A stretch of DNA of 64,000 nucleotides from a virus (IMGVR_UViG_2917802685_000001:32001-96000); one strand, 5' to 3'; shown: positions 32,822 to 63,637, counted from the first letter of the stretch. Numbers and translations are program-made. The notes: generated from the sequence alone by a model not told the origin.

Positions 32822-32855
32822 TTGCAACGCATCGAGTGTTGCTATAGAGTGGGGG
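32822..32855 (+). promoter_or_regulatory. Conserved promoter/operator copy 1
   Basis: TTGCAA c GCATC-GAGT-GTTGC ta TAGAGT GGG. Confidence 0.7.
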
Positions 32856-32893
32856 TGTTCCGTTTGACCGCCGCAAACAGGAGGAGGCGTCCC

Positions 32894-33415
32894 ATGCCCG
32901 CCGCCAGCACGACGCGCCCCCAGGGTGGACGCAGGACGAGCGACCCCGACCCGTTCAACGTCGACATGACCGAGGTCCCCATGACCCCGGCCATGATCGC
33001 CCTCCACGAGGTGGGCAAGCTCCGCGCCCGCATCCTGGAGGTGGACCACTACCTCGAAGAACTCGTCCTCGACGGCACGGAACTCACCCTCGCCGAGGGC
33101 CAGACCGCCACCCACACCATGCGCGCCCAGGGCCGAGGGTTCAAGTGGCGCATGCAGCTCAACCGCCTCCTCAAGGGCAAGCGCGGCATCGACCCGGCCA
33201 AACTGAACTGGCGCCACCGCACCAGGGACCTGGAGCCCGAAGAGGTCCCCGCATACATGAGCGAGGAAGTCCTGGCGGCCATGCGCGACCTCGTCGAGCC
33301 GCTCTACGCGATGATCCAGGACCCCTCCGAGCAGCGCGAAGAGCTGTACCCGGCCATCCACGAGCGCACCAAGCCCGCCATCGAAGGCCACACCATCCAG
33401 GCCAAGGCCAGCTGA
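32894..33415 (+). CDS. Hypothetical protein
   Basis: AGGAGGAGG RBS; behind promoter copy 1. Confidence 0.75.
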   Translation: MPAASTTRPQGGRRTSDPDPFNVDMTEVPMTPAMIALHEVGKLRARILEVDHYLEELVLDGTELTLAEGQTATHTMRAQGRGFKWRMQLNRLLKGKRGIDPAKLNWRHRTRDLEPEEVPAYMSEEVLAAMRDLVEPLYAMIQDPSEQREELYPAIHERTKPAIEGHTIQAKAS

Positions 33416-33527
33416 ACGAAACAGCGCCCCCGGCAAGGTCCCTGTTCCGGACCCCATCGGAGGCGCTGTAGTGACACGACCGTCGCCCCGGATTTCCCGC
33501 CTAAAGGAACACAGAGCACGAGGGAAC

Positions 33528-34556
33528 ATGTCTGCCAACCAGCCTACCGTGACCAAAGCCGTGGTGTCCTACACCGGGACCACCTGGAGAACTCGCGCCG
33601 CCCAGGCCGACTGGGACAGGCTCATCACCGACGGAATGATCTACCTCATCGCCATCGGGGGTTTCTACGTCGGCTATCAGACCCTCTACGCCATGGCGCT
33701 CAAGGTCGGCATGCCCGCCGACCAGGCCGCCGTCGTCTCCGCCATCGCCGACATGGCGATCCTTGCCTACTCCCGCAAGGCCGTCCAGGAGATCAAGGAA
33801 GGCCGCTCCGCCTGGGGCATCCGGACCATCGTCGCCGCCGCCTCCCTGGCCACCTTCTCCCTGCAGCTGCGCGCCGCCTGGCCCCACCCCACCAGCCTCG
33901 GCTTCCACGGCCTCGCCCCGGCCGCCTGGATCCTCGGCCACGAGATGATGCTGCGGGGTCGCCTGCGCACCGCCAAGGCCGCCCGCCGCGCCGCCCAGAT
34001 TGCCGCCGGACTCCGTCCCGCCCCGCTCCCGGCCATCCGCCCGGCCTGGTGGCTGCTGGCCCCCTTCAGCACCTTCACCGTCTGGCGCCTGGTGAAGCTG
34101 TGGGAGAAGTCCCAGGACTACGTCATCCGCATCGAGGCCGCCCGCCGCAAGGACAAGGGCAAGAACGTCCCCCGCGCCTGGGAGGGCTACCTGCTCACCA
34201 CCCAGACCCCGGCCGCCGCGTCCGCGCTGGTGCTCCACGAGATCTGCACTGCCTTCTTCACCCCCGAGGACCTCTTCCCCGAGCCGGGATGGGTCCCTCC
34301 GGTCACGTCCACCCTGTACCGGGAGTCCGACCCCGCCGAGAAGGTCCCGTCCTCCGAGGTCGACGCCCTCCTGCGCATGCTCCCGGAAGCCCCGGCCAAG
34401 GGCCGCCCCGAGGACAAGGCGATCGAGTACATCCGCCGCGTCGAGAACCTCGCCGCGCAGCGCGACATCAAGATCACCGGCGTCTTCCTCGCCGAACTCC
34501 TGCAGGTCGACGGCACCCGCATCTCCAAGCTCCGCAAGATCATGACCACCCCCTGA
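33528..34556 (+). CDS. DUF2637-family membrane protein (plasmid/AICE spread-like)
   Basis: Four TM segments (..GF..GY..L...A...G......D..IL), WWLLAPFST..VWR motif, C-terminal HTH-like. Confidence 0.65.
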   Translation: MSANQPTVTKAVVSYTGTTWRTRAAQADWDRLITDGMIYLIAIGGFYVGYQTLYAMALKVGMPADQAAVVSAIADMAILAYSRKAVQEIKEGRSAWGIRTIVAAASLATFSLQLRAAWPHPTSLGFHGLAPAAWILGHEMMLRGRLRTAKAARRAAQIAAGLRPAPLPAIRPAWWLLAPFSTFTVWRLVKLWEKSQDYVIRIEAARRKDKGKNVPRAWEGYLLTTQTPAAASALVLHEICTAFFTPEDLFPEPGWVPPVTSTLYRESDPAEKVPSSEVDALLRMLPEAPAKGRPEDKAIEYIRRVENLAAQRDIKITGVFLAELLQVDGTRISKLRKIMTTP

Positions 34557-34575
34557 TAGGCCGATAGAGTGAACC

Positions 34576-34617
34576 AGCAGGGCCCGGATGAGCGTGACGG
34601 CTCATCCGGGCCCTGCT
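34576..34617. terminator. Bidirectional terminator
   Basis: 18-bp perfect stem between convergent genes. Confidence 0.85.
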
Positions 34618-34623
34618 CTCGTC

Positions 34624-35899: not shown

Positions 35900-36229
35900 C
35901 TACGACAGCGGGCTGGTGAGTGCGGTGCGGGCCTTGCGGATGGCGGTGGTGGGGTCGGGCCAGCAGAAGAGCCGGTCGACGGTGAGGGCGCCGATTGCGT
36001 CCTGCCAGCCCTCCAGGGTCAGGGCCAGCCCGCCTCCGCGTCCCATCGTGGACACGGCCCATCCCTCCCCGTGGAGCAGGGACTGACGGCGGACGATCAG
36101 GGTCTCTCCTCCGGCGTCGGGGAGGAGGACGCGGTACTCGGTGGCGTCGGCGGCGAGGGCCTGGGCTTCCTGCAGTTCGTGCTGCAGGCGGGCGATCTCG
36201 GCGTGGAGGTCGGCGGGGGAGTCGGGCAT
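35900..36229 (-). CDS. Hypothetical protein
   Basis: Codon bias, co-oriented with recombinase-like gene. Confidence 0.65.
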   Translation of the reverse strand: MPDSPADLHAEIARLQHELQEAQALAADATEYRVLLPDAGGETLIVRRQSLLHGEGWAVSTMGRGGGLALTLEGWQDAIGALTVDRLFCWPDPTTAIRKARTALTSPLS

Positions 36230-36266
36230 GTCGCTCACTCTACGGTCGCGGCGCTCCAGACGGGCA

Positions 36267-36537: not shown

Positions 36538-36948
36538 ATGCGAAGCACCGAGCCTGACCAGCCCCTGGACCCCGACGACCTCGGCCCCGAACTGCAGGAA
36601 GCCCTGCGCAGGATGAGCGCGCGCGGCGACGGCCCCGTGATCGACCTCGGCACCGGCGCCATCGTCGCCAAGGACGGCCACCTCGTCGGCGACCTCGTCG
36701 CCTGCCGCGAATGCGCCCGAGCCGTCGCCCTCGGCTGGTGGGGCAGCACCGCCCGGCACTGCAGCGACCCGGACTCCCCGGTGTGCCAACTGTGCAGTGA
36801 AGGGGAGGCGACCCTGACGGCCGAGGCATGGTTCGCACTGACACTGCAGCTGACCATCCAGAACACCGCGAGCGGCACCCGGCGCACCTGGCGAGACGAC
36901 GCCATCAAGGGCCTCGGCGCCATCGCCATGCCCGAGCCGCCGGGGTGA
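36538..36948 (+). CDS. Cys-containing hypothetical protein
   Basis: CREC..HC..CQLC; codon bias; start uncertain. Confidence 0.65.
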   Translation: MRSTEPDQPLDPDDLGPELQEALRRMSARGDGPVIDLGTGAIVAKDGHLVGDLVACRECARAVALGWWGSTARHCSDPDSPVCQLCSEGEATLTAEAWFALTLQLTIQNTASGTRRTWRDDAIKGLGAIAMPEPPG

Positions 36949-36976
36949 CACGCAACGATTGGTGCGATAGAGTGGG
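36945..36976 (+). promoter_or_regulatory. Conserved promoter/operator copy 2
   Basis: GTGACA c GCAAC-GATT-GGTGC ga TAGAGT GGG. Confidence 0.75.
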
Positions 36977-44032: not shown

Positions 44033-44233
44033 TCAGCCCTTGACGCTGGCGACGAACGACGACCAGGCGGCCGGGCTCACCGTGATGACGGTGCTGCGGG
44101 CCGGGTCCTTGCTGTCGGCGACACCAACGTCCACGACGTCGGCGCCGACCGTGCCCTTGCGGGTCTCGATGCAGGCTTCTCCGCTGCCTGCGCTGTAGGA
44201 GGACTTCCTCCACGGGGTGTACTGCTTCTCCAT
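44033..44233 (-). CDS. DUF397 protein
   Basis: WRKSSYS....CIE, DSKDP, AWSSF. Confidence 0.92.
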   Translation of the reverse strand: MEKQYTPWRKSSYSAGSGEACIETRKGTVGADVVDVGVADSKDPARSTVITVSPAAWSSFVASVKG

Positions 44234-45148: not shown

Positions 45149-45219
45149 GTGTCCTCCCCGGTCGACGCGCTGGCCCACAGTCTGCACCTCGCAGCCCTCC
45201 TCGACCAACACACGGTAGA

Positions 45220-45259
45220 GAGAATTCTCCCCACAGGGCTTGCGAACGCGAGAATTCTC
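45220..45259. promoter_or_regulatory. Two GAGAATTCTC palindromes 30 bp apart (probable XRE operator)
   Basis: Between divergent XRE and ATPase genes; third copy at 39679-39688. Confidence 0.6.
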
Positions 45260-45346
45260 CGCGACGGTGGGTGACAACCCGCTTGCGCCATGTACCGCAA
45301 CGGTGTGAGGGGGCCTCACCTGCCCATCCTGCAACGGGAGTTACAC

Positions 45347-45826: not shown

Positions 45827-45854
45827 CCCCTCCCCCGGTGGACCGCCCCCGCTC

Positions 45855-50964: not shown

Positions 50965-50970
50965 CCTGCG

Positions 50971-51001: not shown

Positions 51002-51017
51002 GTCTTCCCGGACCCAG

Positions 51018-51049
51018 TAGACACGCAACGATTGTTGCTATAGTGTGGG
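51018..51049 (+). promoter_or_regulatory. Conserved promoter/operator copy 6
   Basis: TAGACA c GCAAC-GATT-GTTGC ta TAGTGT GGG. Confidence 0.85.
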
Positions 51050-51085
51050 TCTCACCAACCCGCCAAGGAACACAAGGAGGGCCGC

Positions 51086-53098
51086 ATGGCCACCCCGGAG
51101 AACGAGAAGAAGATCCAGCTTCAGGTCGTGGGATGGGTCCCCGCCGACGAGGTCGGAAACCTGGAGGTCGGCGACCGGATCATGTGGAACGGCGGCAACA
51201 CCTCCGAGGTGACCGAGGTCGAGCAGGTGTCGCGCTGCTTCCGGCTCATCTCCCTCAAGTCGTCGAAGACCGGGGAGAAGGAGACGCCGCGCAAGCTGAA
51301 GAACACCTCTCTCGTGGCGCGCATCCCCCAGGCCAAGGAGGAGCCCCCGGCCGCTGCCGTGGAGCGCCCGGCCGTCGAGGGAACCGTGATCCCCGCCGGT
51401 CACACCCTCGGCATCCCGGCCGAGTACGCCGACAACGTCAACGTCCGCGACGCGTACGGCGCCCTCGTGGCTGCCGGACACACCCCGGCCGAGCTGTCGA
51501 ACCAGAGTGATGACGGGGTGGACGACACCGCGTTCGGCACCGGCTTCATGATCTACGCCCGCGAGAGCGCCGTCCTGGTCGGCCACCTGGTCGACGGCAT
51601 CGACATGTGGAACAGCCTGCCCGACGCCGAGCGCCGCCGGATCCTTCGCGCCTACCGCGACACCATGCGCGCCGCCGGGTGGGAGACGGACGGGCGCATC
51701 ATCGGCAAGCGGCTCCACGCCTGGCGCACCTCCCCGCTGCCCGAGGGCGTCACCGCCGCCCAGACCCGGGGCGAGACGGCCGAGGAGCTGCCGGAAGGGC
51801 CGGTGAAGGTCCGGTTCGGCCTGAGCGACGACACCCGCCAGCAGCTCAGGGAGCAGGGCGAGCGGGCCCGCACCGAGCACCGCGCCGAGTTCGCCGAGCG
51901 CCAGCGTGAGGAGGCCGCGCGGCACGCCCCGTTGCCCGTGGGCACCCGTGTGCGGCACGCCGTGCAGGCGTGGGCCACCGTCGTGCAGGCGCCGAAGGGC
52001 ACCGCCGTGGTGGTCGGCCACGGCCGCACCCACCGTGACGGGTCGCTGGAGTACCAGGTTCTTGCGGGGCAGGACATCAGCCGCGCGATCGGCCCGGACA
52101 ACCCCATGACCCACCCGACCGAGTGGAACAGCGACCGCGTGCGGGAAGTCGCGCCGCCGCGCTTCAAGGCCCGCAGCGTGAGCGGCCGAACGACCCATGG
52201 CGTGCTGGACATCGACACGGACCGCTGGGTGAACGTCGGTCTCCGCGAGGAGGACGCGCAGGAGGAGACCCAGGCCCTCAATATTGGCCGGGCCACCCTG
52301 GACGCGTACGGCCGTATCGAGTGGCCGGGGAACCCGCTGCCGGAGATGCCCAAGCCGCCCAAGGGGTGCCGCTTCGAGATCATGCGGACGCCCGCCCGGA
52401 CCACGGTCAACATGTACGACGGCATCCAGGCCGCCCCCGTCCTGAGTGACTGGACCGGACACGCCCCCCACCACGAGGCCGTGACCATGATCGCCCGCGA
52501 GATGGCCCGGGTGCACACCAGGGCCATGAAGGAGACGGCCGCGCTCCTCGCCCTGGATGACGCCACGCTGTACCAGGTGGCCACGTCGGCCGGTGACGTC
52601 GAGACGATGACCGGCGCCGCCGCCCGCGCCCGCCTCCAGTCCTACCGCGAGGAGGCCGGACCGGAGAAGCTCCACGCCAGCTACAACAGCCCGGCCGTCA
52701 CCGTGGCGCACTCCGGCGCGCACTGGATGCTGACCGTGCACGCCTACCGCAGGGACGGCAGCCGGAACCTGGGCGGCATGGTTCGGGTGACGGTTGAGCC
52801 GCTGGTGGTGGCCAAGGCGGCTCACGCGGTCCGTCAGGGCACGGGCGCCGGTACGTATGTGCCCGTGGAGACGCTGAACGTGGACGCGTTCGGGCCGTGG
52901 GTGCGGCCGGTGCCCGACTTCCCCGAGCACGTGGTGTTGCACTGGGTCAGCTGCGGCACGCCGGTGAAGGCGGGCGCCGAGCGGTACGAGGAGCACATGA
53001 AGACCTACCGGGGCGCCCTGGAGGCGGCCGGGTGGCGCTTCGTGACCGCTATCGCCGACGGCGGCATGGTGTTCCAGGACCCCGCGACCCTGGCCTGA
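51086..53098 (+). CDS. Large modular hypothetical protein
   Basis: AAGGAGG RBS; two Y..(T/A)(M/L).AAGW modules. Confidence 0.8.
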   Translation: MATPENEKKIQLQVVGWVPADEVGNLEVGDRIMWNGGNTSEVTEVEQVSRCFRLISLKSSKTGEKETPRKLKNTSLVARIPQAKEEPPAAAVERPAVEGTVIPAGHTLGIPAEYADNVNVRDAYGALVAAGHTPAELSNQSDDGVDDTAFGTGFMIYARESAVLVGHLVDGIDMWNSLPDAERRRILRAYRDTMRAAGWETDGRIIGKRLHAWRTSPLPEGVTAAQTRGETAEELPEGPVKVRFGLSDDTRQQLREQGERARTEHRAEFAERQREEAARHAPLPVGTRVRHAVQAWATVVQAPKGTAVVVGHGRTHRDGSLEYQVLAGQDISRAIGPDNPMTHPTEWNSDRVREVAPPRFKARSVSGRTTHGVLDIDTDRWVNVGLREEDAQEETQALNIGRATLDAYGRIEWPGNPLPEMPKPPKGCRFEIMRTPARTTVNMYDGIQAAPVLSDWTGHAPHHEAVTMIAREMARVHTRAMKETAALLALDDATLYQVATSAGDVETMTGAAARARLQSYREEAGPEKLHASYNSPAVTVAHSGAHWMLTVHAYRRDGSRNLGGMVRVTVEPLVVAKAAHAVRQGTGAGTYVPVETLNVDAFGPWVRPVPDFPEHVVLHWVSCGTPVKAGAERYEEHMKTYRGALEAAGWRFVTAIADGGMVFQDPATLA

Positions 53099-53129
53099 CC
53101 TGCGCTGACACGGCATGGCCTCACTCGAC

Positions 53130-53164
53130 TTGACACGGGCAACACGTGTTGCGATAGAGTGGGG
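53130..53164 (+). promoter_or_regulatory. Conserved promoter/operator copy 7
   Basis: TTGACA cgg GCAAC-ACGT-GTTGC ga TAGAGT GGGG. Confidence 0.9.
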
Positions 53165-53225
53165 TCATGCCCACCGGGGGAAAGCCCCCGGGGACTTCCC
53201 GCCGCTTACCAGGAGGACAGACAGA

Positions 53226-54221
53226 ATGAACGCCACCACCCACCGCACCTACAAGATCAACCGCACCTCCGGTTCGAGCGGCTCCCTGTGCCCTCCCGGG
53301 CACTACAACCACACCATGAGCCTGGAGGAGTACAACGGCCCGCGAGGCCGCAAGGTGATCGGCATCATGAGCCTCGACTACATCGACAACGAGCACGCCG
53401 CCGCCTATGACTTCATGGTCGAGTCGGTCAACAGGGTCCGCGAGGAGTCCCGCAAGAACTGGGTGGCCTCCGAGGCGTGGATCAGGAGCGTCTATGGCTA
53501 CTTCCGGGACAGCTACTCGCCCGACGGCGAGACCCGCGACGTTTCCAAGGCCATCACGTACAGTCCCGTATCCGAGTCCGTGAAGGCGGCCCGCAAGGCG
53601 TTGGCCGACGCGTTCGAGGTGCCCGGGACGCTGTACACGACGGAGATCCGCCCCCTGCCGTGGCTCAATGAGGACGGCCAGGGCGAGGCCGACGCGAAGA
53701 GCTACCGCGACGGCTCGAAGCGCCCGATGCGCGCCGCCCGCCGGGGGTACGAGGTGACGGCCAAGGCGGACGGCTCCCGGGTCTACGTGTACGCCCTCGC
53801 CGACGACGGCACCCGGTACGGCGCGCTGCCGATCTTGCAGCGCTACGCCGACGCGCTGACCGAGGCCGGGTATACCGACGTCCGGATTGAGGAGCCGCAG
53901 AACACCGCCACCACGTTCGTGCCTGAGCGCGTGATCGCCACCCCGGCCACGACCCCCGAGCCCATCGACCCCGCGCGGCACCTGGCCGTGATGTGCATCC
54001 GGGAGTACTTCCCCGACCACGAGCCGCGTACCGAGCTGATCGAGAACCCGGGCAAGGGCCACGGCGCGTACCCCTGCACGAAGTGCGGCGAGAAGGTGCA
54101 GTACGAGGCCAAGTTCGACGCGCACGTGACCGTGTCCACCCGGATGGACGGCAGCGGGATGACGCACTGGACGTACGGCAAGGAGTGCCCGAAGGGCGGC
54201 GCCCACACCATCGAGTACTGA
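53226..54221 (+). CDS. Hypothetical protein
   Basis: AGGAGG RBS; C-terminal CTKC..CP..H. Confidence 0.8.
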   Translation: MNATTHRTYKINRTSGSSGSLCPPGHYNHTMSLEEYNGPRGRKVIGIMSLDYIDNEHAAAYDFMVESVNRVREESRKNWVASEAWIRSVYGYFRDSYSPDGETRDVSKAITYSPVSESVKAARKALADAFEVPGTLYTTEIRPLPWLNEDGQGEADAKSYRDGSKRPMRAARRGYEVTAKADGSRVYVYALADDGTRYGALPILQRYADALTEAGYTDVRIEEPQNTATTFVPERVIATPATTPEPIDPARHLAVMCIREYFPDHEPRTELIENPGKGHGAYPCTKCGEKVQYEAKFDAHVTVSTRMDGSGMTHWTYGKECPKGGAHTIEY

Positions 54222-54227
54222 CTATCG

Positions 54228-54292
54228 GCCCCGGCCCCGCCCACCCAGGGCGGGGCGGCGGACCGAGGCAGGTTCAATGCCTGCCCGGGGCG
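54228..54292 (+). ncRNA. tRNA-like element A
   Basis: 7-bp stem GCCCCGG/CCGGGGC, hairpin, T-arm GCAGG-TTCAATG-CCTGC. Confidence 0.6.
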
Positions 54293-54297
54293 CACAG

Positions 54298-54328
54298 TAG
54301 ACACGCAACGCCTGTTGCTATAGAGTGG
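54298..54328 (+). promoter_or_regulatory. Conserved promoter/operator copy 8
   Basis: TAGACA c GCAAC-GCCT-GTTGC ta TAGAGT GG. Confidence 0.88.
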
Positions 54329-54379
54329 AATCACAGCCGGGGGAACCCGGCGCTTCCCGCCACCAGAGATGAGACCCAC

Positions 54380-55111
54380 GTGAGCACCTTCGACACCCTG
54401 ACCCCCGGCGAAGCCGTCGCCGCCGCCCGCGACGACGCCCCGGAGTACAAGCGGATCACCGGCCTGAAGGGTCTGGCGGCCGACCGTATCCCCCACTACA
54501 CCACCCAGACGGCGGCCGGTAACACCCGCAAGCCCGAGCAGCCGTGGGTCGCCCATGGCCACCTGGACAAGTTCAAGGAGATCGCGCGGGTCGAGTGGGC
54601 CAAGGACGCCGACCCCGGCACGGCCGAGGTGTTCTACGCCGACGACTCCACCGACCTGATCAAGCGTGGCGAACTGCTGTGCGTCGAGCGGCCGATCACC
54701 ACCGCCGACGAGGACGAAGACCGCACGCTGTCCGAGCTGATCACCGCCGACGGCGTCACCCTCACCTCGCAGCACATCGCCACCGGCACCGACGCCGACG
54801 GGTGGGCGCACCACGAGTACCGCGTAACGATCGCCTACGACGGCCGGACCTACACCCAGACCGTTCTTCACGGCATCGGCAACAAGGAGGCCCCGGAACT
54901 GGTCGAGACCGTTCACATGCTCGTCTCCCAGTCCATGACCGCGCTCGCCGCCGACAGTTACGAGGACTGGGCGAGCGACTTCAGCAGCGACCCCGCCGAC
55001 TGGATGCCCGAGAAGACCTACACCGACAACGTCCAGATGGCCAAGGATCTGATGATGCTGCTCGGTACCGAGCGCTACGAGCGTTACGCCAAGGCCGACC
55101 ACGACGCCTGA
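54380..55111 (+). CDS. Hypothetical protein
   Basis: GTG start, codon bias. Confidence 0.75.
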   Translation: MSTFDTLTPGEAVAAARDDAPEYKRITGLKGLAADRIPHYTTQTAAGNTRKPEQPWVAHGHLDKFKEIARVEWAKDADPGTAEVFYADDSTDLIKRGELLCVERPITTADEDEDRTLSELITADGVTLTSQHIATGTDADGWAHHEYRVTIAYDGRTYTQTVLHGIGNKEAPELVETVHMLVSQSMTALAADSYEDWASDFSSDPADWMPEKTYTDNVQMAKDLMMLLGTERYERYAKADHDA

Positions 55112-55119
55112 GTACCACA

Positions 55120-55183
55120 GCCCCGGCCCGCCCCCGCGAGGGGGCGTGGCGGCTCGGGTCCGGTTCGACTCCGGCCCGGGGCG
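55120..55183 (+). ncRNA. tRNA-like element B
   Basis: GCCCCGG/CCGGGGC stem, GCGA-capped hairpin, CCGG-TTCGACT-CCGG T-arm. Confidence 0.6.
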
Positions 55184-55224
55184 CTCACCACATCCCGCCA
55201 CCACCACGAGGGGGAACCCACCGC

Positions 55225-56406
55225 ATGAACGCGACCGACACCACGGCGCCGACCGCCGCCGAGATGGACCTGATGATCAAGGCCGTCACCAGCCGCGAGA
55301 AGCACCTGATCGGCCCGCCCGAGCTGCGCGACAGCATCGAGGCCAAGGGGTACGCCTACCGCCTCCAGGGCAAGCACGTCGAGGGGGTCATGGTCCTCAC
55401 GCAGAAGGGTTCTGACCTGGCGTACGAGACCCACATGGCCCGGGAGGGCGTGACCATCGAGCCGCCGTTCACGGACGCTGACGCCCTGGAAGACTCCGCC
55501 CTGTTGAAGGCGCTGGAGGTCAAGAGCGGCAACGTGCACGCCCCCGACGGCGCCCGCCTGGTCGCTCAGGGCCTGGCGTGGGTCGACGAGGAGCGCGGGC
55601 ACTACTTCCTGACCGACGACGGCCGCGCCGCCGCCGAGGCGCTCCGCGACATCGAGCGTGACCTGATCACGGATGAAATGCTGGAGGTGATCAACCAGTG
55701 CGGCGGGGGCCGCGCCCAGGCCAAGGCAACCGGCTGGATCGCGGGTGTCACCCAGTTCGAGCAGCGCGTGTACATCGAGCGCGTACGGCTGCCCCACACC
55801 AGCCCGTACACGTTCAGCACCTTCGACGGCTGGACGAACCTGCGCTTCCAGCTGTTCAGCAAGCTGGGCATTCACGCGGAGATCGAGGGCAACCGCCTGT
55901 ACTTCGGCGCGCTGCGCCCCTCGCGCCGGGGGAACACGCCCCAGCTGGGCGAGCCCGACGAGGAGCGGAGCGAGCGCATCCACGCCGGGCAGCACGCTGA
56001 CGCCGTGTGGTCCGACCTGTGCAACCAGGAGGCCGGAGCCCCGTTCCGACTGGCCGTGATCGACGCCGACGGCCCCCGGGACGTCTACATGCCTCCGGCC
56101 GCGTGGATCTTCCACCACTTCAGCCGTGACGTCCGCCTCGACCTCGACGAGCACGGCCGCTATCGGGTCACCGTCACGGCCGCTCCGGACGCCGGATGGG
56201 ACACCCCGCCCGCCGCCGCCGTCTGGACCGGGCACCGTGCCGACGTCGCCGTCAAGGCCATGGCGCGCGCCCTGTACAGCACGAAGTGCGCCCACGGGTA
56301 CGGCACCGGCCGCGACTCCTGCCCCGGCTGCGACTACACGGCCGAGCTGTTCGAGGAGCGCTACCCCCTGCGCGGCTACGGAATGCGCAGCCTGGTTCTC
56401 CACTGA
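55225..56406 (+). CDS. Modular hypothetical protein with two winged-helix-like units
   Basis: GAGGGGG RBS; ..KGYA...LTQKG and L..QGLA...LTDDG; C-terminal CAHG..CPGC. Confidence 0.75.
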   Translation: MNATDTTAPTAAEMDLMIKAVTSREKHLIGPPELRDSIEAKGYAYRLQGKHVEGVMVLTQKGSDLAYETHMAREGVTIEPPFTDADALEDSALLKALEVKSGNVHAPDGARLVAQGLAWVDEERGHYFLTDDGRAAAEALRDIERDLITDEMLEVINQCGGGRAQAKATGWIAGVTQFEQRVYIERVRLPHTSPYTFSTFDGWTNLRFQLFSKLGIHAEIEGNRLYFGALRPSRRGNTPQLGEPDEERSERIHAGQHADAVWSDLCNQEAGAPFRLAVIDADGPRDVYMPPAAWIFHHFSRDVRLDLDEHGRYRVTVTAAPDAGWDTPPAAAVWTGHRADVAVKAMARALYSTKCAHGYGTGRDSCPGCDYTAELFEERYPLRGYGMRSLVLH

Positions 56407-56412
56407 CCAACC

Positions 56413-56481
56413 GCCCTGGCCCCGCCCGCCGCCGACCGGGCGGGGCACGGTCCGAGACAGGTTCGATGCCTGTCCGGGGCA
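56413..56481 (+). ncRNA. tRNA-like element C
   Basis: GCCCTGG/CCGGGGC stem, hairpin, ACAGG-TTCGATG-CCTGT T-arm. Confidence 0.6.
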
Positions 56482-56515
56482 CTCCTGAATATCCCGCCAG
56501 ACACAAGGGGGAGCA

Positions 56516-57070
56516 GTGAAGCCGTACACCGTGCGGACCAACCCGATGCCCGAACCGCTAAGGGCCGCATTGACGAGCCTGATCAGGAACGGCGCGCGCG
56601 TAGGTCCCGAGGACACCTACGCCGACGAGCACGGACACCACCTGATCGCCCGTACTGACACCGTGGAGGTGCGCGCCGTGCTCGCCCTCGACCACTACGC
56701 CGACGGCGTTGGTTCGGCCGATGGTGAGCTGAGGTGGACCGTCACCCGCGACGGCGCGCCGCTGGAGTGCGCCCGCTGGTCCGCCGTCGTCGCGCTCGTC
56801 CGCAACCCTGACGTACTCCTGCCCGAGCACATCGCCGACGGCGACGCCTTCCTGATGGAGGTGAGCGGCGACCACGGCGAAACCTGGCGGGAGTTCGGCC
56901 ACTTCGCCGGAATGATCGCCCGCGAGCAGATCGCCACCATCATGCGCGAGCACCACGGGCACGCCGAGTACGAGCCGGGGCGCCTGATCATCCGGGGCAC
57001 GCTGCTGAGCGGAAGCTACAGCCGCCACACCTGGCGATTCACCCGCACCCGCACCGCCCAGGGGGAATGA
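56516..57070 (+). CDS. Hypothetical protein
   Basis: GGGGGAG RBS. Confidence 0.7.
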   Translation: MKPYTVRTNPMPEPLRAALTSLIRNGARVGPEDTYADEHGHHLIARTDTVEVRAVLALDHYADGVGSADGELRWTVTRDGAPLECARWSAVVALVRNPDVLLPEHIADGDAFLMEVSGDHGETWREFGHFAGMIAREQIATIMREHHGHAEYEPGRLIIRGTLLSGSYSRHTWRFTRTRTAQGE

Positions 57071-57429
57071 TCATGGACGCTGAGCAGACGTTGAAGGCCG
57101 TTCGTGAACTGATCGGCGCGCCCGCGCCGGTCGTCCAGCCGACCAACATGGATGAGCTGTTGGAGCAGGCCAAGAGCCTGCCCGCCGACTTCAAGATCAA
57201 GTTGATCACGGCCATGGGTTTCTCGCCGACGGGCTCGGATCATCAGGACGACTGCATTCGGTACACGCACGGGACTGGCTTCCGCTGCGGGTGCGTGCCT
57301 CCGGCCACCTGGTGGAACTCGCCGAAGGACGTTCAGGAGTTCCGCAAGGAGACGTGGGACGACCAGTTGGCCAAGGCCAAGCAGTGGTCCCGCGAGGGTA
57401 CGCACGGTCGCGAAAAGGAAGAGGACTAG
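57067..57429 (+). CDS. Hypothetical protein
   Basis: ATGA overlap; H..DC....CGC. Confidence 0.7.
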   Translation: MIMDAEQTLKAVRELIGAPAPVVQPTNMDELLEQAKSLPADFKIKLITAMGFSPTGSDHQDDCIRYTHGTGFRCGCVPPATWWNSPKDVQEFRKETWDDQLAKAKQWSREGTHGREKEED

Positions 57430-57466
57430 TTCGTGATCCCGTACATCCCGCCGAGGAGGTGAGCAC

Positions 57467-57637
57467 GTGAGTCAGCAGGAGACGACCAAGCCCAGGCCGT
57501 TCGTGGTGGGCCGCATGCTCTTCGTTCGCATTCCGAGGGTCGGTCTGTGCCACATGGGCTCTTGGGGCTGGGAGCCCTGCCCCGAGGGCTTCCTGACCAC
57601 CCACCAGGAGATCGCAGAAAGGCAGGTGACCGGATGA
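57467..57637 (+). CDS. Small hypothetical protein (56 aa)
   Basis: GAGGAGGT RBS, GTG start; not in ORF track. Confidence 0.55.
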   Translation: MSQQETTKPRPFVVGRMLFVRIPRVGLCHMGSWGWEPCPEGFLTTHQEIAERQVTG

Positions 57638-57736
57638 CCCACCCGCGCCACCCCAAGAAGCCGAAGCGCCCCCGGTAGGGGCCGACCACCGCGAGCAGGA
57701 GGGGAGCCGCCTAGACGGTTGCCGACGGCGGGAGTT

Positions 57737-57779
57737 CAGCAGGCAGGACCAGGGCAGTGCGCCCGGTTCCTGCCTGCTG
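57737..57779 (+). terminator. Terminator-like hairpin
   Basis: CAGCAGGCAGGA/TCCTGCCTGCTG stem. Confidence 0.65.
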
Positions 57780-57792
57780 GCATTTCAGGGGG

Positions 57793-57824
57793 TAGACGGG
57801 CAACGATCGTTGCTATAGAGTGGG
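57793..57824 (+). promoter_or_regulatory. Conserved promoter/operator copy 9
   Basis: TAGACG g GCAAC-GATC-GTTGC ta TAGAGT GGG. Confidence 0.88.
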
Positions 57825-57861
57825 CACGTCCCGCCGGACATCACCACCGAAGGAGCGCCCC

Positions 57862-59172
57862 ATGGCCACCACGAAGCTCAGCGACACCATGATCACCACC
57901 ATGCTCGGCGCACTGCGCCACCGCAACAACGAGGGGCGTTACGAGATCATCGGGGGTGCCCGCCGCACCGTCGACTCGCTGATCTCGCGCGGCAAGGCCG
58001 AGGCCGTTGAGATCGTCCTCATTCGGGAGACGGCCACGGGCAAGCCCGTCAGCACGCGCATGGCCACCTACCTCACCGAGGAGGGCGTGACCTTTCTGCG
58101 CGAGGCCCTGACGTACATCCTGGGAAAGCGCGGCGACGAGCGTGACGCGGTGTGGCAGGACTGGCTGACCGCCGAGCGCCGCAACGAATGGGCCTTGATC
58201 GACTTCCTCGGCCTGACCGCCGACACGTACGAGGTGGCCACCACCACGCCCCACGAGCGCGGCACGCAGCGCGAGACCCTCGGCCGCGCGGACGCCTGGG
58301 AGCAGATGGGCAACGCGCTCCGCAACGGCCAGCGCATCACCATCGACGCCCGCACCATGACCGTGCACACCAAGATGGGCGCCCGCTGGACGTTCACGTG
58401 CACCGAGAAGGAGCCCACCCCCGTCACGGCCGAGGACGTTGAGGACGTCGACTACCGCATGTTCGTCGGCGTGCTGTTCGAGGACGCGAAGGACATGGGT
58501 ACCTACAAGGCCGCGAACGTCCGCGCGGCGATCAAGAACAACGCCGACCAGGGCCACCGCGCCGTGCGCACCGAGGACGGCATGATCCACGTGTACTACT
58601 CCTGGTTCGTGCCGCAGCGCCCCGGGGCCGAGGAGAGCCCCGCCGCGCCCGCCGAGGAACTGGACCGCATGGGGCGCCCGCACATCGCGATTGCGCCCAA
58701 GCCCGGCGAGGACTCCGTCTCTCACCTGTCGGCGGGGAGCGCGCTCACCCGTGGCCTGCCGCTGAACATGCTGGCGCATCCGGCCGTCGAGGAGCAGCCC
58801 GGCGCGCCCGTGGCCATCAACCCCCAGGAGCGCCCGCCCCTCGCCGAACGCGTGACCGTGGGTGATCTGAACGTGGGCGACGAGTTCGTGACGCGCTGCG
58901 GGTGGACGGTGCTTGCCATCGACGGCGGCACGTTCACCGCCGAGCGCTACGACGGCGGGCAGACCGTGACTCAGACCGTGCCGGAGAGCACCGAGGTACT
59001 GCGCACCCGCCGCGCCCCGCAGGTGCGTGGTGTGGTTCCCAGCCCGCACGGTGTGGGGACTGCCGTGGTGCTGGCGCCCCGCAGCGTGGGCGACACGGAG
59101 CCCTGGGCGGACGCGGCTGACACGAGGTACGGCGCCCGGTACGAGGAGACGGAGGTGGAGCGCGAGGCGTAG
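57862..59172 (+). CDS. Modular hypothetical protein, N-terminal winged-helix-like unit
   Basis: GAAGGAG RBS; RTVDSLISRGKA...LTEEG. Confidence 0.8.
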   Translation: MATTKLSDTMITTMLGALRHRNNEGRYEIIGGARRTVDSLISRGKAEAVEIVLIRETATGKPVSTRMATYLTEEGVTFLREALTYILGKRGDERDAVWQDWLTAERRNEWALIDFLGLTADTYEVATTTPHERGTQRETLGRADAWEQMGNALRNGQRITIDARTMTVHTKMGARWTFTCTEKEPTPVTAEDVEDVDYRMFVGVLFEDAKDMGTYKAANVRAAIKNNADQGHRAVRTEDGMIHVYYSWFVPQRPGAEESPAAPAEELDRMGRPHIAIAPKPGEDSVSHLSAGSALTRGLPLNMLAHPAVEEQPGAPVAINPQERPPLAERVTVGDLNVGDEFVTRCGWTVLAIDGGTFTAERYDGGQTVTQTVPESTEVLRTRRAPQVRGVVPSPHGVGTAVVLAPRSVGDTEPWADAADTRYGARYEETEVEREA

Positions 59173-59254
59173 CCGGGGGCACGCAGACACAGCAGGGGCC
59201 GGGAGGGCATCCCGCGCCCCTGCTGGCGTGTCCGCGATTGGTCGGCACCCCGGC

Positions 59255-59288
59255 TTGACACTGGCAACAACTGTTGCTGTAGAGTGGG
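59255..59288 (+). promoter_or_regulatory. Conserved promoter/operator copy 10
   Basis: TTGACA ctg GCAAC-AACT-GTTGC tg TAGAGT GGG. Confidence 0.9.
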
Positions 59289-59327
59289 ACGCGTCCCGCC
59301 GGACACCACCACGAAGGAGCACACCCC

Positions 59328-60758
59328 ATGAGCGTGATCGAGATCAAGCGCAAGCCGACCGCCCGCCAGGTCGAGGCGCTGCGCACCGGGACCACGAACC
59401 CCGAGGGCATCATCGAGGTGACCGCCGACAAGCGCACCCATGAGGGGCTCGTGGGCCGTGGCCTGGCCGACTGGAAGCGCCCCGAGACCCTGGGGCTCGG
59501 CCGCAGCGTCCACGGTACGGCCCTGTGCGTGATCAACAGCCAGGGGCGTGACTACCTCGCCAAGCTGGACGGTGTGGAGATCACCCGCGACGACGTGGCC
59601 GAGGGCAAGCGGCTCGCGCTGGCCTACCTCGGGTTCGGCGAGCGCCGCCGGGAGGCCGAGCAGGCCCCCGCCTCCGTGGTGTTGAAGGGTGAGTTCGCCC
59701 GGGTGCGCCGCGTGATGCGCCGCGCCATGCGCAACGCCGGTGCCGAGGCCGCGAACAACGCGCTGAACCAGTACAACCGCACTCACGCGCTGCTGCTCGC
59801 GGCGCGTAGGTTCGACCAGGAGGACGCGGCCACGGCCGCGCAGGACACCACCACCACGACCGAGGAGGCCCCCGTGGCCGAGACCCCCGTGCACGACCCC
59901 TACGCCCCGACCCCGGGCATCGACGTGGACGGACGCCCGTACGCCGTGGGGGACACCGTGGAGTCCACCCACCGCGCCCGCACCGGCGCCCGGCGCGGTA
60001 AGGCCGCTGAGGTGGGCACCGTGACCGCCGTGGTTGACGGGCGCCCCGTGGTCCGCTTCACCACCGGCGACCAGGACGAGACCGACGTGCGCCCTGACCT
60101 GTTCCGTATCACCACCCCCGCCGCGCCCGTCAACGAGCCTGCCGACTTCCGGGGCCTCACCCGCGACGACGTGGCCCACGATGCCGCCCAGGCGCTCGCG
60201 ACGCTGTCCGACGACGACCGCGCCACGGTCGAGGGCAAGGCACCCTCGGTGGTGCTGGGGCTGGCGTTCCGCCGGGCGCAGACGGCATGGTGCGCCACCC
60301 GCCGGGAGCACACCGCCGAGGAGTCGGCCGTGTACGACCGTCAGGCGAACATCGCGAGCGCTGCGCTGATCTTCGAGCGAGCCGACGACCCCGAGGCCGC
60401 CGCCACCGCGCGCGCCGACGACTTCCGCATCACGAACGCCGAGCGCGCCGCCAAGGCCAAGCGCATCGAGGAGGCCCGCGCTCGGGCGCTCGTCGTCGAG
60501 TGGGCGAACTCCGAGCCCTACCGGGGTTACGCCGTGCGCACCGAGGACCGTGGCCACGGCATCATCGCCGTCTACGTCCGGGGCAGCGCCGACGAGAGCA
60601 GCAAGATCGAGAAGGCGGGCAACGCGTACGCCCGGGAACACCTCACCTTCGAGCCGGGCCTGTCGGCCCACGCGAACGGGGGCGGGGAGTTCTTCCAGGG
60701 TGAGTACATCGCGCAGATGATCTACACCACGAAGCGGCTCGCCCCGCGCGAGGACTGA
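59328..60758 (+). CDS. Modular hypothetical protein, N-terminal winged-helix-like unit
   Basis: GAAGGAG RBS; RTHEGLVGRGLA...INSQGRDYLAKLD. Confidence 0.8.
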   Translation: MSVIEIKRKPTARQVEALRTGTTNPEGIIEVTADKRTHEGLVGRGLADWKRPETLGLGRSVHGTALCVINSQGRDYLAKLDGVEITRDDVAEGKRLALAYLGFGERRREAEQAPASVVLKGEFARVRRVMRRAMRNAGAEAANNALNQYNRTHALLLAARRFDQEDAATAAQDTTTTTEEAPVAETPVHDPYAPTPGIDVDGRPYAVGDTVESTHRARTGARRGKAAEVGTVTAVVDGRPVVRFTTGDQDETDVRPDLFRITTPAAPVNEPADFRGLTRDDVAHDAAQALATLSDDDRATVEGKAPSVVLGLAFRRAQTAWCATRREHTAEESAVYDRQANIASAALIFERADDPEAAATARADDFRITNAERAAKAKRIEEARARALVVEWANSEPYRGYAVRTEDRGHGIIAVYVRGSADESSKIEKAGNAYAREHLTFEPGLSAHANGGGEFFQGEYIAQMIYTTKRLAPRED

Positions 60759-60862
60759 CACCAGGGCGCCCAGGAGCGCCGACTAGCGCCCGGTCGACCC
60801 CACCGGCCGGGCGCGCCCCGCAGGACCACCACACGCCAGCACGGCCACGAGGAGACACCACC

Positions 60863-61306
60863 ATGAACGAGACCATCAGCCCCGCCGCCCGCGCCGTCCT
60901 GGGGATCATCGTCACCGTCACCGCGACGGGGGAGTACGCCCGCGCCCGGCTCGCGTTCGGCGAGGGCAGCGAGCACGCGGGCATGGTCGAGATCGGCATG
61001 GCCGACGGCACCAAGCGGTACGTCACCGCCATGGAGATCGCTCCGGCCCAGGGGTTCCCGATTCAGATGCGGGCCATCCCGGTGTACCCGGACGCCGCCG
61101 ACGGTTCCAGCCGCCCCATGGGACTGTGCCAGAACGAGGGGTGCGGGCTGGTCGAGTCGAACGTCATCGACGTGGTGGCCACCAAGGGAGCGCGCTACAC
61201 CTGCGGGGACTGGTACGTGAAGCGGGGAGGGCGTGACGTGAAGGCGCCGACGGCCACCGTGTGTACCCACTGCTACGCCCAGGGGCGTACGCCTTTCAGC
61301 AGCTGA
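60863..61306 (+). CDS. Hypothetical protein
   Basis: GAGGAG RBS; CQNEGC..CTHC. Confidence 0.75.
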   Translation: MNETISPAARAVLGIIVTVTATGEYARARLAFGEGSEHAGMVEIGMADGTKRYVTAMEIAPAQGFPIQMRAIPVYPDAADGSSRPMGLCQNEGCGLVESNVIDVVATKGARYTCGDWYVKRGGRDVKAPTATVCTHCYAQGRTPFSS

Positions 61307-61388
61307 CGCAGCATCACCACGGGCGCCCCGACCACACCGGGGCGCCCCGCCTGGCAACGACCACACGACCACGCCCAGGGGGGCAGCA

Positions 61389-61865
61389 GTGAGCACACTG
61401 GAGACGTTGACGCGCTACGTGTGGGCGGAGTCGCCCAGCCTCGCATGGGGACTGGTGAACCTGCGGGAGGCGGATGACGGCGCATGGCTCTCCGGGCAGG
61501 TCCACACCGCCCAGGAGGACGCGGAGCGCCAGGAGGACAAGCGCACGGGGACGGCTCTCTACCGGGTGACGCGCACGAGCACGCTCGCCGACGAGAGCAC
61601 GCCCGCCCCCGAGGGGGAGGACTGGGTGTTCACCTACAGCACCGAGGGCCGACACGACGTGTGGAGCAAGCCGAATTGCTACAGCTCTTTCCCTGGCGTG
61701 AAGCGGCTCGATGGGTTCTGGACGTTCCCGGAACCCAGGGAGCCTATCGAGCGGGCAGCGTGGGCGAACCTGGAGCCGCGCACCGTGGGGTACGGGACAG
61801 CGTTCAGGGCGTATCTGCTGGCGTGGTCGGTGGACGTGGTGGGAGGGCAGCAGGGGGACGAGTAG
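61389..61865 (+). CDS. Hypothetical protein
   Basis: AGGGGGG RBS, GTG start. Confidence 0.65.
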   Translation: MSTLETLTRYVWAESPSLAWGLVNLREADDGAWLSGQVHTAQEDAERQEDKRTGTALYRVTRTSTLADESTPAPEGEDWVFTYSTEGRHDVWSKPNCYSSFPGVKRLDGFWTFPEPREPIERAAWANLEPRTVGYGTAFRAYLLAWSVDVVGGQQGDE

Positions 61866-62023
61866 CCAGGGGCAGGGACTACCGGCGGCAGGGGCAGGGG
61901 ACAGCATCCCGCCCCTGCCGTTCTGTGTGGGTGCGTGCGCATATGGGGTGAGTCGGACACCCCTCGGAGGGGGCGAGACCCGGGCCGGGCCAGAGCGCTC
62001 CGGAATTGATGGGGCGCACCCGC

Positions 62024-62057
62024 TTGACACGGGCAACGACTGTTGCCCTAGAGTGGG
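62024..62057 (+). promoter_or_regulatory. Conserved promoter/operator copy 11
   Basis: TTGACA cgg GCAAC-GACT-GTTGC cc TAGAGT GGG. Confidence 0.9.
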
Positions 62058-62084
62058 TACTCCGCCACACCATGAGGAGCAGCA

Positions 62085-63509
62085 ATGGGCATCACGATCT
62101 GCAACGGCAAGCGAGTCGAGGGCTACGACCCCAACAGCGGCAGCAACAGTGAGGCCGCCGTGGCCGCCCACAACGCCGAGTGCCACGAGCGCACCTACGA
62201 GGGCGCGGTGCTGCGCCTGCGGGAGCGCAACGGCTACGACGACAGCGACTTTTACGCCCTGGTGTGGGACGAGGAGCAGCAGCGGGTACGGGAGATCCAG
62301 TACGCGACCACCCGGGGGTGGACGTACCACAACGGGGCGAGCATCGACGCGACGCACGAGGTGATCGCCAAGGCGGTCGCGCAGATGACCGAGGCGCGGT
62401 TCGCCCTGGTGCAGGAGGACTACGCCCAGACGCCGCGCAAGGAGTACACGGCGCGCGCCACGGTCAAGGGCGCAGCGGTCGAGGGTGTGATCGCGTGGGT
62501 GGGCAAGTCGCGTAACCGGTACATCGACATCGCCCGCTACGGGATCAAGGTCGAGGGGCGCAAGGGCTACGTGTTCCGTGACGCGACCGACGACGACTTT
62601 GAGTTCGACGTGCCGCCGGTGAGCGAGGCGGACATGATCACGTGGCGCAGCAACTGTGAGCACAACGTGCGTGCGGAGCTGGCGCAGGCGCAGGCGATTG
62701 CCGACCAGCGTGACCCGCGCCCCGCTGCTCCGGCCCCGGGGACGATCGTGGATGCCCAGGAGGAGGACGAGACGGGCATGCGGCTGTACGCGGTGGGTGA
62801 GTCGTTCTGTGAGGACGGCTGGGCGCAGCAGGTTGCGGCGGCTGTGGTGGACGAGTCGGCGGCTGAGTACACGGTGATGGGTCACCGGGCGGACGGGTCG
62901 AAGATGCCCGCCCGTGAGGTGACGGTGTTCCGGGCGCTGGGCATGGTGGCGCGGTGGGTGGAGAACGACGGGGCGCAGGTGTGCCACGACGGGCGTGGGG
63001 TGGTGCGGATCGTGCGGGAGGACGGGGCGCGGCTCATGCTGGCGCCGGTGCGCCCCCAGGAGGCCGCCCAGGGCCCCCAGGAGGACGCGGAGCGCCCCGG
63101 GGTGGCCGAGGAGACCCAGGAGGCCCCTACGGGCGCTGAGACGGCCGAGGGGGGCGCCCAGGAGGCGCAGGGGGCCGAGGAGCGCCACGACATGGTGAGC
63201 GGCCTCCCCATGGGGCAGATGGCTTGCCTGTGCGGGCTCACGGACGTGGATGCGCTCCTGGGGCACTGGGTGGCCACGGGTGTGCTGCCGGTGGTGCCGC
63301 TGGTGGAGATGAGCGGGGTGTGGCGGATCACGGGGCGTGGCGCCGAGGTGTACGCGGAGGGGGCGACGCAGGCGGAGGCGTGGGCGGACGCGGCGCGCCA
63401 GGGGTTCGAGCGGGACTACTTCCACGCGATCACGCACCTGAGCATGGCGGAGCTGGAGGCCCTCACCGCGCCCCAGGAGGCCGCTGTCGAGGGTGAGCGC
63501 GTGGCGTAG
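62085..63509 (+). CDS. Modular hypothetical protein
   Basis: GAGGAG RBS; ERNGYDDSDFYALVWD motif. Confidence 0.8.
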   Translation: MGITICNGKRVEGYDPNSGSNSEAAVAAHNAECHERTYEGAVLRLRERNGYDDSDFYALVWDEEQQRVREIQYATTRGWTYHNGASIDATHEVIAKAVAQMTEARFALVQEDYAQTPRKEYTARATVKGAAVEGVIAWVGKSRNRYIDIARYGIKVEGRKGYVFRDATDDDFEFDVPPVSEADMITWRSNCEHNVRAELAQAQAIADQRDPRPAAPAPGTIVDAQEEDETGMRLYAVGESFCEDGWAQQVAAAVVDESAAEYTVMGHRADGSKMPAREVTVFRALGMVARWVENDGAQVCHDGRGVVRIVREDGARLMLAPVRPQEAAQGPQEDAERPGVAEETQEAPTGAETAEGGAQEAQGAEERHDMVSGLPMGQMACLCGLTDVDALLGHWVATGVLPVVPLVEMSGVWRITGRGAEVYAEGATQAEAWADAARQGFERDYFHAITHLSMAELEALTAPQEAAVEGERVA

Positions 63510-63603
63510 CTGCGGATTCCGTTGCTCTCGCCGGTGGGCCGACCGTGAGTTTTCGTTGCGACGGCCCTCGGTGGGTGCGGATTTCGTTGTTTGGGCGCCC
63601 CCT

Positions 63604-63637
63604 GGTACACGGGCAACAACTGTTGCGCTAGAGTGGG
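63604..63637 (+). promoter_or_regulatory. Conserved promoter/operator copy 12
   Basis: GGTACA cgg GCAAC-AACT-GTTGC gc TAGAGT GGG. Confidence 0.85.

Follow-up and report, generated by a model that had tools for sequence, protein, structure and literature searches.

The DNA analysed here is a stretch of 64,000 nucleotides (hereafter the window), bases 32001-96000 of one 154,158-bp contig with 69% G+C. The contig and NZ_CP041653.1 are identical, the latter being the circular plasmid pRLB1-9.1 from the forest-soil isolate Streptomyces sp. RLB1-9. This element carries a series of promoter-like sequences in which a 14-bp dyad, GCAAC-N4-GTTGC, occupies the spacer between the -35 and -10 boxes, and we consider it probable that they are early promoters of the host type with a built-in operator for a dimeric repressor encoded by the element itself. 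The proposal builds on the strict register of the dyad and on the behaviour of its arms, which in related elements change together at all copies. An earlier note on the window had listed twelve such sites and all of them were recovered, the coordinates that it gave being the starts of the -35 boxes:

32822-32850, plus strand: promoter-operator 1, TTGCAA, 17-nt spacer with GCATCGAGTGTTGC, TAGAGT; heads a 173-aa gene at 32894.
36945-36973, plus strand: promoter-operator 2, GTGACA, 17-nt spacer with GCAACGATTGGTGC, TAGAGT; heads a 110-aa gene.
45855-45885, plus strand: promoter-operator 3, TTGACG, 19-nt spacer with GCAACAATTGGTGC, TAGAGT; heads the gene of p178 (46013).
46582-46612, plus strand: promoter-operator 4, TTGACA, 19-nt spacer, perfect dyad.
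48602-48630, plus strand: promoter-operator 5, TAGACA, 17-nt spacer with GCAACGATTGATGC; heads a conserved 375-aa gene (48665), the anchor gene.
51018-51046, plus strand: promoter-operator 6, TAGACA, 17-nt spacer, perfect dyad, -10 box TAGTGT.
53130-53160, plus strand: promoter-operator 7, TTGACA, 19-nt spacer, perfect dyad.
54298-54326, plus strand: promoter-operator 8, TAGACA, 17-nt spacer, perfect dyad.
57793-57821, plus strand: promoter-operator 9, TAGACG, 17-nt spacer, perfect dyad; its counterpart in a close relative has TTGACA at 19 nt.
59255-59285, plus strand: promoter-operator 10, TTGACA, 19-nt spacer, perfect dyad.
62024-62054, plus strand: promoter-operator 11, TTGACA, 19-nt spacer, perfect dyad.
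63604-63634, plus strand: promoter-operator 12, GGTACA, 19-nt spacer, perfect dyad.

The sites share a common layout, namely a -35 box, 1 or 3 nt, the 14-bp dyad, 2 nt, TAGAGT (TAGTGT once, at 51041) and GGG. The earlier description of a palindrome always 2 nt before the -10 box, with two geometries, holds throughout the window: six sites combine a TTGAC(A/G)-type -35 box (one of them GGTACA) with a 19-nt spacer, and six a TAGAC(A/G)-type box (including GTGACA and TTGCAA) with a 17-nt spacer. Shuffled sequences would be expected to hold 0.04 perfect copies of GCAAC-N4-GTTGC, against 8 in the window, and when the dyad is sought together with the -10 box, allowing up to three mismatches, the window gives 12 matches, all on the plus strand (0.16 expected, 1 in the richest shuffle).

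The array continues beyond the window, as a motif search of the full element, which the earlier note had suggested, gives 19 copies, all on the plus strand between genome positions 64.8 and 114.3 kb, and seven of these lie past the window end (genome 97052-114282). Each copy is found 7-128 nt 5′ of an annotated plus-strand gene start, and in 19 of 19 the dyad ends 2 nt before the -10 box. The consensus is a full 14-bp perfect palindrome, GCAACAATTGTTGC. Arm positions 1, 2, 3 and 5 and their mirror positions are fixed in 18-19 of the 19 copies (95-100%), and as pairs they are complementary at the same frequency; the -10 box is likewise fixed, and so is the GGG that follows it (19, 18 and 17 copies, base by base). 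Position 4/11 varies (A or T in the left arm, and T, A or G in the right), while the central 4 nt, the 2 nt before the -10 box and all flanks hold little or no information. The spacer measures 19 nt in 7 promoters and 17 nt in 10. The -35 box is missing in the other 2 (genome 103335 and 113617, equivalent to window positions 71335 and 81617), both of which have CCACC..ATG-GCATC; the first lies inside an inverted repeat of greater length (CGACCCCAC ... GTGGGGTCG). In one relative, G326, a similar CCACCCCAAC upstream element takes the place of the -35 box in about half of the copies.

The dyad is practically confined to promoters. The whole-genome search found none away from a -10 box except three one-mismatch matches that look like chance, 19 of the 22 TAGAGTG words in the genome carry it, and an intergenic scan of the whole element for a TTGACA-like box paired with TAnnnT returned almost only dyad sites. 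Behind these promoters, from window 45800 to 64000 and further to genome 115 kb, lie large genes of up to 670 aa, nearly all of them without any family in Pfam and PHROGs.

Further evidence comes from the relatives of the element. As pRLB1-9.1 combines a phage terminase and an HK97-fold capsid protein with replication genes (its own DnaB and DNA polymerase III alpha) and a ParB-containing protein on a circular plasmid, it is a phage-plasmid; it also codes for a WhiB-like protein. The terminase is only distantly related to those of Rhodococcus phage E3 and of the Bxz1/Myrna/I3 mycobacteriophages (about 30% identity), a megablast against the phage collection gave zero matches, and the papers on strain RLB1-9 that were consulted contain no description of the plasmid. 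The lists of homologues contain more than 20 contigs of 150-158 kb from named Streptomyces strains. Homologous elements of about 150 kb were gathered via the conserved array gene (window 48665-49792), via the whole contig of the Streptomyces genome G326 and via virome records; in what follows, G000 is the pRLB1-9.1 element itself and the other G and L codes are records of relatives. Close relatives from soil viromes (82-89% protein identity) retain the motif at corresponding sites. Additionally, all the relatives fetched that fall into the four operator classes below have a 14-bp dyad 2 nt before the -10 box, on one strand, gene after gene, with arms that differ between elements and are uniform within each of them (reversed-pattern controls for the class searches gave 0-1 matches):

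Class A, GCAAC/GTTGC: G000 (19 sites), L070 (6), L073 (7) and L078 (10); also G001/2.
Class B, GCATC/GATGC: L071 (7 sites) and G417 (10).
Class C, GCACT/AGTGC: G326 (13-15 sites), L072 (9) and L074 (8-9).
Class D, GCAYA/TRTGC: G415 (6 sites) and G416 (6).

Classes A and B overlap, G000 and L073 themselves having GCATC arms at some sites. More distant relatives use other dyads in the same register, CCAAG-GATT-CTTGG or CCAAC-AATC-GTTGG in G003 and G004 and CCTGC-AATC-GCAGG in L076, and the clade G005-G008 has plain TTGACAAC-N17/18-TAGNNT promoters with unrelated spacers and no dyad. The anchor gene illustrates this range at a single locus: its orthologous promoter, about 55 nt before the start codon and with the same leader, is of class A, B or C depending on the element, and elsewhere has a CCAAC-type dyad or none at all. 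The dyad is therefore separable from promoter function, and the promoters of the dyad-less clade indicate that they work without it.

Since both arms change in concert at all copies, the symmetry of the dyad must be kept by selection, and a single trans-acting reader with diverged specificity is implied. Switching of this kind is the signature expected where a dimeric protein binds operators on DNA and where, as in heteroimmune phages, relatives form groups of different specificity, and the reader would be encoded by the elements, because its specificity differs between relatives in the same host genus. The proposal in the earlier note of one element-encoded regulator for the whole set is, for this reason, by far the best reading. 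Two explanations would dispense with a binding protein altogether. According to the first, the similarity is the mere trace of a recently duplicated promoter cassette without separate function. Repeated cassettes can indeed spread by recombination, and one orthologous site has a different geometry in close relatives, but changes have reached saturation at positions in the motif and around it, whereas the arms stay fixed, which points to selection and not to recent copying; the layout is also kept in relatives at 52-75% protein identity, and the concerted arm changes between genomes contradict such a trace, which makes this explanation scarcely credible. According to the second, the inverted repeat folds, in RNA or in single-stranded DNA, into a hairpin that serves for instance as a terminator or processing signal for read-through from upstream. 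The compensatory nature of the arm changes is also typical of RNA stems, and the copy at genome 103335 lies inside a longer repeat. Nevertheless, a stem would not need the same arm sequence at all copies in a genome, and this one would have only 5 bp, with a non-wobble mismatch at pair 4/11 in 7 of the 19 copies (A-A in 4, A-G in 2, T-T in 1) and T-G in an eighth; moreover, the site keeps a fixed distance from the -10 box and precedes the point at which the RNA presumably starts. We thus regard a hairpin as highly improbable, and the dyad, judged by sequence comparison, is a protein site and neither promoter filler nor an RNA stem.

The reader is not expected among host regulators. In a search of 185,579 species genomes, exact matches to the motif occurred at about the chance level (23 contigs, one match each), contrary to the host regulon that the proposed motif search of hosts might have revealed; such a regulon was rejected, some of the matches being promoters of TetR genes in Saccharothrix and Williamsia that are unrelated to the element. 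In these host chromosomes (L015-L017 and L024 from Saccharothrix/Actinosynnema; L019, L020 and L029 from Williamsia), GCAAC-N4-GTTGC-NN-TAGAGTGG stands before genes of the TetR family (TetR_C_11), often with a second GCAACTGGAGT(T/C)GC just downstream, and they are probably autoregulatory operators of the TetR proteins. The actinobacterial LexA/SOS box is TCGAAC-N4-GTTCGA. The echo of LexA boxes perceived in the earlier note therefore amounts to a resemblance of layout, as GCAAC differs from the SOS half-site of Actinobacteria and, within the same host genus, gives way to GCATC, GCACT or GCAYA. Host LexA is ruled against because it cannot explain such element-specific switching.

Which polymerase would use these promoters is suggested by their boxes. 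Both the -35 and the -10 match the consensus of the host primary sigma factor, which supports the earlier assignment to primary-sigma-type promoters, and we infer that the dyad promoters are those usable by unmodified host RNA polymerase, i.e., the early class. A different view would make the dyad a part of the promoter that is read by RNA polymerase carrying a phage-encoded sigma-like subunit, for which the element offers one protein:

19744-20136, plus strand: sigma-70 region-4-like 130-aa protein (Pfam Sigma70_r4_2).

This protein was found in every dyad-bearing genome searched, across all the dyad-bearing clades, and not in the dyad-less clade, whose genomes are incomplete; additionally, the -10 box varies somewhat among operator classes. 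However, not one letter of its helix-turn-helix (HTH) changes between classes A, B, C and D, in contrast to the half-sites; a two-fold symmetric sequence in the spacer is not known to be read by sigma factors, and both boxes match the host consensus. We consider it very unlikely that the dyad is read in this way, and the protein, which the earlier note had included among its candidates, was also rejected as a separate operator binder. Its HTH is invariant across elements that are otherwise 50-85% identical, and its probable role is that of a transcription factor at a different class of promoters, middle or late.

In the mechanism that we favour, the 19 sites of the genome (12 in the window), with their near-consensus -35 boxes, TAGAGT -10 boxes and GGG discriminator, would act as early promoters for host RNA polymerase. 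The operator built into the spacer would extend roughly from -28 to -15, assuming a transcription start some 7 nt downstream of the -10 box. A sequence-specific protein, dimeric or with two domains and encoded by the element, would bind there and, as the site takes up the interval from the -35 box to the -10 box, would most likely block RNA polymerase. About 50 kb of fast-evolving early genes could thereby be silenced together, in the plasmid-prophage state and/or as an early shut-off in lytic growth, and related elements would form specificity groups with different half-sites, in the manner of heteroimmune phages. Repression is favoured because the site fills the spacer of promoters whose boxes are near consensus, because the element, which has to keep silent while it is a plasmid, has hardly any host-type promoters outside this set, and because the dyad-less clade shows that the promoters need no helper. 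The near-consensus boxes, in what are almost the sole sigma-70-like intergenic promoters of the element, would suit promoters with an active default state, for which a repressor is needed. A 14-bp site in which the outer bases are conserved and the centre is free also has the layout of operators of the 434/P22 type, which are bound by XRE proteins, and the recognition helices of the XRE-type proteins of these elements differ between operator classes.

The pairing of -35 boxes with spacers is where activation must be weighed against repression. In four class-A genomes, TTGAC(A/G) always stands 19 nt from the -10 box (18 cases) and TAGAC(A/G) always 17 nt from it (19 cases), with no exception, while class C has 18-nt spacers with imperfect -35 boxes. 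This strict pairing is a small unexplained rule of promoter design. A perfect TTGACA thus comes only with a poor 19-nt spacer and the good 17-nt spacer only with a weakened TAGACA, as if the promoters were deliberately sub-optimal and the dyad bound an activator or a dual-function regulator that they need, for instance by a MerR-like remodelling of the spacer. In line with this, two copies have no -35 box, and in the 19-nt promoters the dyad is nearly centred in the spacer, as it is in MerR promoters. However, MerR-type control, which the earlier note had brought forward, is not supported: the spacers are 17, 18 (class C) and 19 nt long and not uniformly 19-20 nt, and the untwisting typical of that mechanism would not help the roughly half of the promoters with 17 nt or those of class C. 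No MerR-family domain was found in the element either (PF13411, no match in G000 in a six-frame search at E <= 0.01), and a MerR protein of the host, although possible, would not explain half-sites that are specific to each element. More generally, the -10 box with its GGG and the -35 box are near consensus, and the dyad-less clade has the same promoters without such a site. A relative of one candidate regulator (see below), WhiJ9 of S. venezuelae, is nevertheless an activator (PMC10294661). Taken together, these points make activation distinctly unlikely.

As for the identity of the reader, the candidates and their neighbours in the window are the following:

13878-14516, plus strand: XRE-212, candidate regulator in the replication module (Pfam HTH_31/HTH_19/HTH_3), with two XRE-type HTH domains in one chain.
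44033-44233, minus strand: small DUF397 (BldB-like) protein by annotation, partner gene of the WhiJ-like gene, which it adjoins in relatives too.
44258-45187, minus strand: WhiJ-like protein, candidate regulator (Pfam HTH_31 + DUF5753), just before the main promoter array.
45347-45826, plus strand: AbaA-like HATPase_c_2 protein (Pfam; anti-sigma-kinase fold), divergent from the WhiJ-like gene.

XRE-212 is our tentative first choice, the WhiJ-like protein is a more doubtful one, and that some other protein reads the dyad is equally doubtful. In its AlphaFold2 (AF2) model, XRE-212 has two helical domains separated by a disordered linker, and its best fold matches are the HTH domains of P22 c2, 434 and ClgR, matches that are weak in E-value but consistent. 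Its recognition-helix residues and whole-protein identity track the operator class in part: the residues of the first helix are TVR(Q/E)Y for class A, SVRDL for every class-C genome and SVREY for class D, and G418, a fourth genome with the class-C helix, has a class-C-like site. The trio of WhiJ-like, DUF397 and AbaA-like genes, for its part, occupies the same place beside the array in every class A-D relative examined, and in 12 genomes the recognition helix of the WhiJ-like protein has a distinct signature for each of the four classes (A, xP(V/T)(V/I)YR(Q/N)E; B, VPA(L/I)YRHE; C, x(A/S)T(I/V)YRQE; D, KPTLYRYE), although its overall similarity does not track operator class. The proteins that follow the classes best are AbaA-like (58% identity within a class and 42% between classes) and p178 (the two together, 58-59% within and 36-42% between), neither of which looks like a DNA binder.

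Several observations weigh against the repressor proposal as a whole. The first concerns the promoters, among which a perfect -35 box and a 17-nt spacer are never combined; the absence of any promoter optimal in both respects could mean tuned strength or a need for help, i.e., activation. The others concern the regulators, as neither candidate assigns cleanly to the operator classes. The XRE-212 helix is identical in L073 (class A) and G417 (class B), and also in L071 (class B) and class D, while for the WhiJ-like protein of L073, taken as a whole, a class-D protein is the nearest (72%). A distant WhiJ-like gene is present in a dyad-less phage, and both candidates are missing from G003 and G004 despite the other dyads found there (L076 was not searched).

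The remaining proteins that might have bound the dyad were rejected. From the list of candidates in the earlier note, the XRE protein at 13878 stays a good one, whereas three drop out: the 19744 product for its invariant HTH, the tyrosine recombinase at 35029 for having no counterpart in the dyad-bearing relative G326, and the 32894 product, in which Pfam recognises no DNA-binding domain. The GerE-type 79-aa protein (3899) has no counterpart in G326, G003 or G004, and a winged-helix 414-aa protein (genome 26817-28061, minus strand) is missing from G003 and G004; for the latter, a role in plasmid replication seems more likely, given a weak Rep-like Pfam match. Finally, p178 (46013-46549) was set aside as a binder despite following the classes so well, since its model shows tandem SH3/KOW-like barrels and no DNA-binding fold was recognised; a protein atlas search gave no usable match for it. 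In classes B and C, p178 forms the N-terminal part of a protein of about 358 aa.

A different reading replaces the classical phage repressor by the trio, seen as a signalling module of Streptomyces development that the virus has captured, in which the WhiJ-like protein would bind all the early dyads while its DUF397 partner and the class-specific AbaA-like kinase-fold protein would set its activity. This reading is unlikely, but if it were true, the phage-plasmid would read the developmental or stress state of its host when choosing whether to remain a silent plasmid or to enter lytic growth, and at least four mutually orthogonal operator/regulator pairs would be available from the family.

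Some further features of the region deserve mention. The ATG at 36980 lies 6 nt past the -10 box of promoter-operator 2, so that the 110-aa gene is probably leaderless, and a terminator-like hairpin (48553-48583) is found just upstream of promoter-operator 5. Downstream of nearly every copy, the short leaders carry CCCGCC(A/G) a few bases 5′ of the ribosome-binding site (for instance at window 48640-48650, 51056-51062 and 57828-57834), and the same is seen in all class A-D relatives. The genes behind the promoters turn over fast, and even G326 lacks counterparts of many of them, but the intervening promoters are retained. On the minus strand (window 35900-36242), a TAGAGT -10 box without dyad stands 7 nt before the start codon of a 109-aa gene, which heads an operon with a tyrosine recombinase; this promoter may be active in the plasmid state. 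A one-mismatch dyad at 45331, before the AbaA-like gene, was rejected as an operator, as the same sequence is present in relatives of every class and covers the ribosome-binding site. The intergenic region of the WhiJ-like and AbaA-like genes (window 45215-45265) holds two copies of a 10-bp palindrome, GAGAATTCTC, one on either side of a CTTGCG box and at a distance of about 30 bp. Relatives of classes A and B retain this palindrome, whereas L073 and class C have GCGAATTCGC or AGATCT-type words in its place, so it tracks the family tree of the WhiJ-like protein and not the class of the 14-bp operator. Near the WhiJ-like gene of the class-D relatives L082 (around 8977) and L083 (around 8934), an SOS-box-like TCGAAT-N4-GTTCGA directly precedes a TACGGT -10-like box.

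The control logic proposed here, with one phage regulator, many operator-bearing early promoters and specificity groups, is familiar, while this example of it is undescribed. The lambdoid phages 434 and P22 have XRE-type HTH dimers (CI/Cro and c2) as regulators, with heteroimmune variants. Their sites are also 14-bp, two-fold symmetric, conserved at the outer bases and free in the centre, they overlap the promoter core (here the promoter is assigned by consensus), and the half-sites differ among related phages; the weak fold matches of XRE-212 to P22 c2 and the 434 repressor agree with this likeness. By contrast, those phages have a tripartite OR/OL switch region, whereas pRLB1-9.1 has one isolated operator at each of 19 dispersed promoters and no divergent repressor/cro pair was recognised in it. 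P1 is likewise a plasmid prophage with many operator-bearing promoters scattered over the genome, on which its C1 repressor acts, but the P1 sites are asymmetric and of 17 bp, no C1 relative was seen, although no search was aimed at one, and host and phage lineage are different (the terminase of pRLB1-9.1 is distantly Bxz1/E3-like). The stoperators of the actinobacteriophage L5, bound by gp71, resemble the array in being many and all in one orientation relative to transcription; however, they are asymmetric 13-bp sites, lie mostly inside transcription units and stop elongation, while the sites described here are symmetric and lie in the promoter spacer. In the Streptomyces phage phiC31, one repressor, c, binds conserved inverted repeats (CIRs, 17 bp) in early intergenic regions, but its early promoters belong to a type other than that of the host primary sigma factor, and the repeats are not known to keep a fixed place in a spacer 2 nt from a -10 box. 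As to the modules of WhiJ, BldB and AbaA (PMC10294661), the adjacent HTH_31 + DUF5753, DUF397 and HATPase_c_2 genes are the same, and the end of the WhiJ9 repeat, CTCAAC, is close to GCAAC. WhiJ9 of S. venezuelae is a proven DNA binder that recognises direct repeats, CGnnCTCAAC, and activates one neighbouring gene (PMC10294661), whereas here inverted repeats stand at 19 promoters and the link between module and dyad is correlative.

What this analysis adds is the full count of sites, the concerted switching of arms over at least 14 elements in at least four classes, the -35/spacer rule and the exclusion of several candidate regulators. The family provides at least four natural versions, probably orthogonal to each other, of strong Streptomyces promoters that contain their own operator; when the regulator is known, they would be directly usable as repressible promoters in the engineering of strains that produce antibiotics. 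For the biology of the elements, the array would define the early transcription programme of an unstudied and widespread group of Streptomyces phage-plasmids of about 150 kb, and the operator-specificity groups would predict which of them may coexist in one cell and which exclude each other from it.

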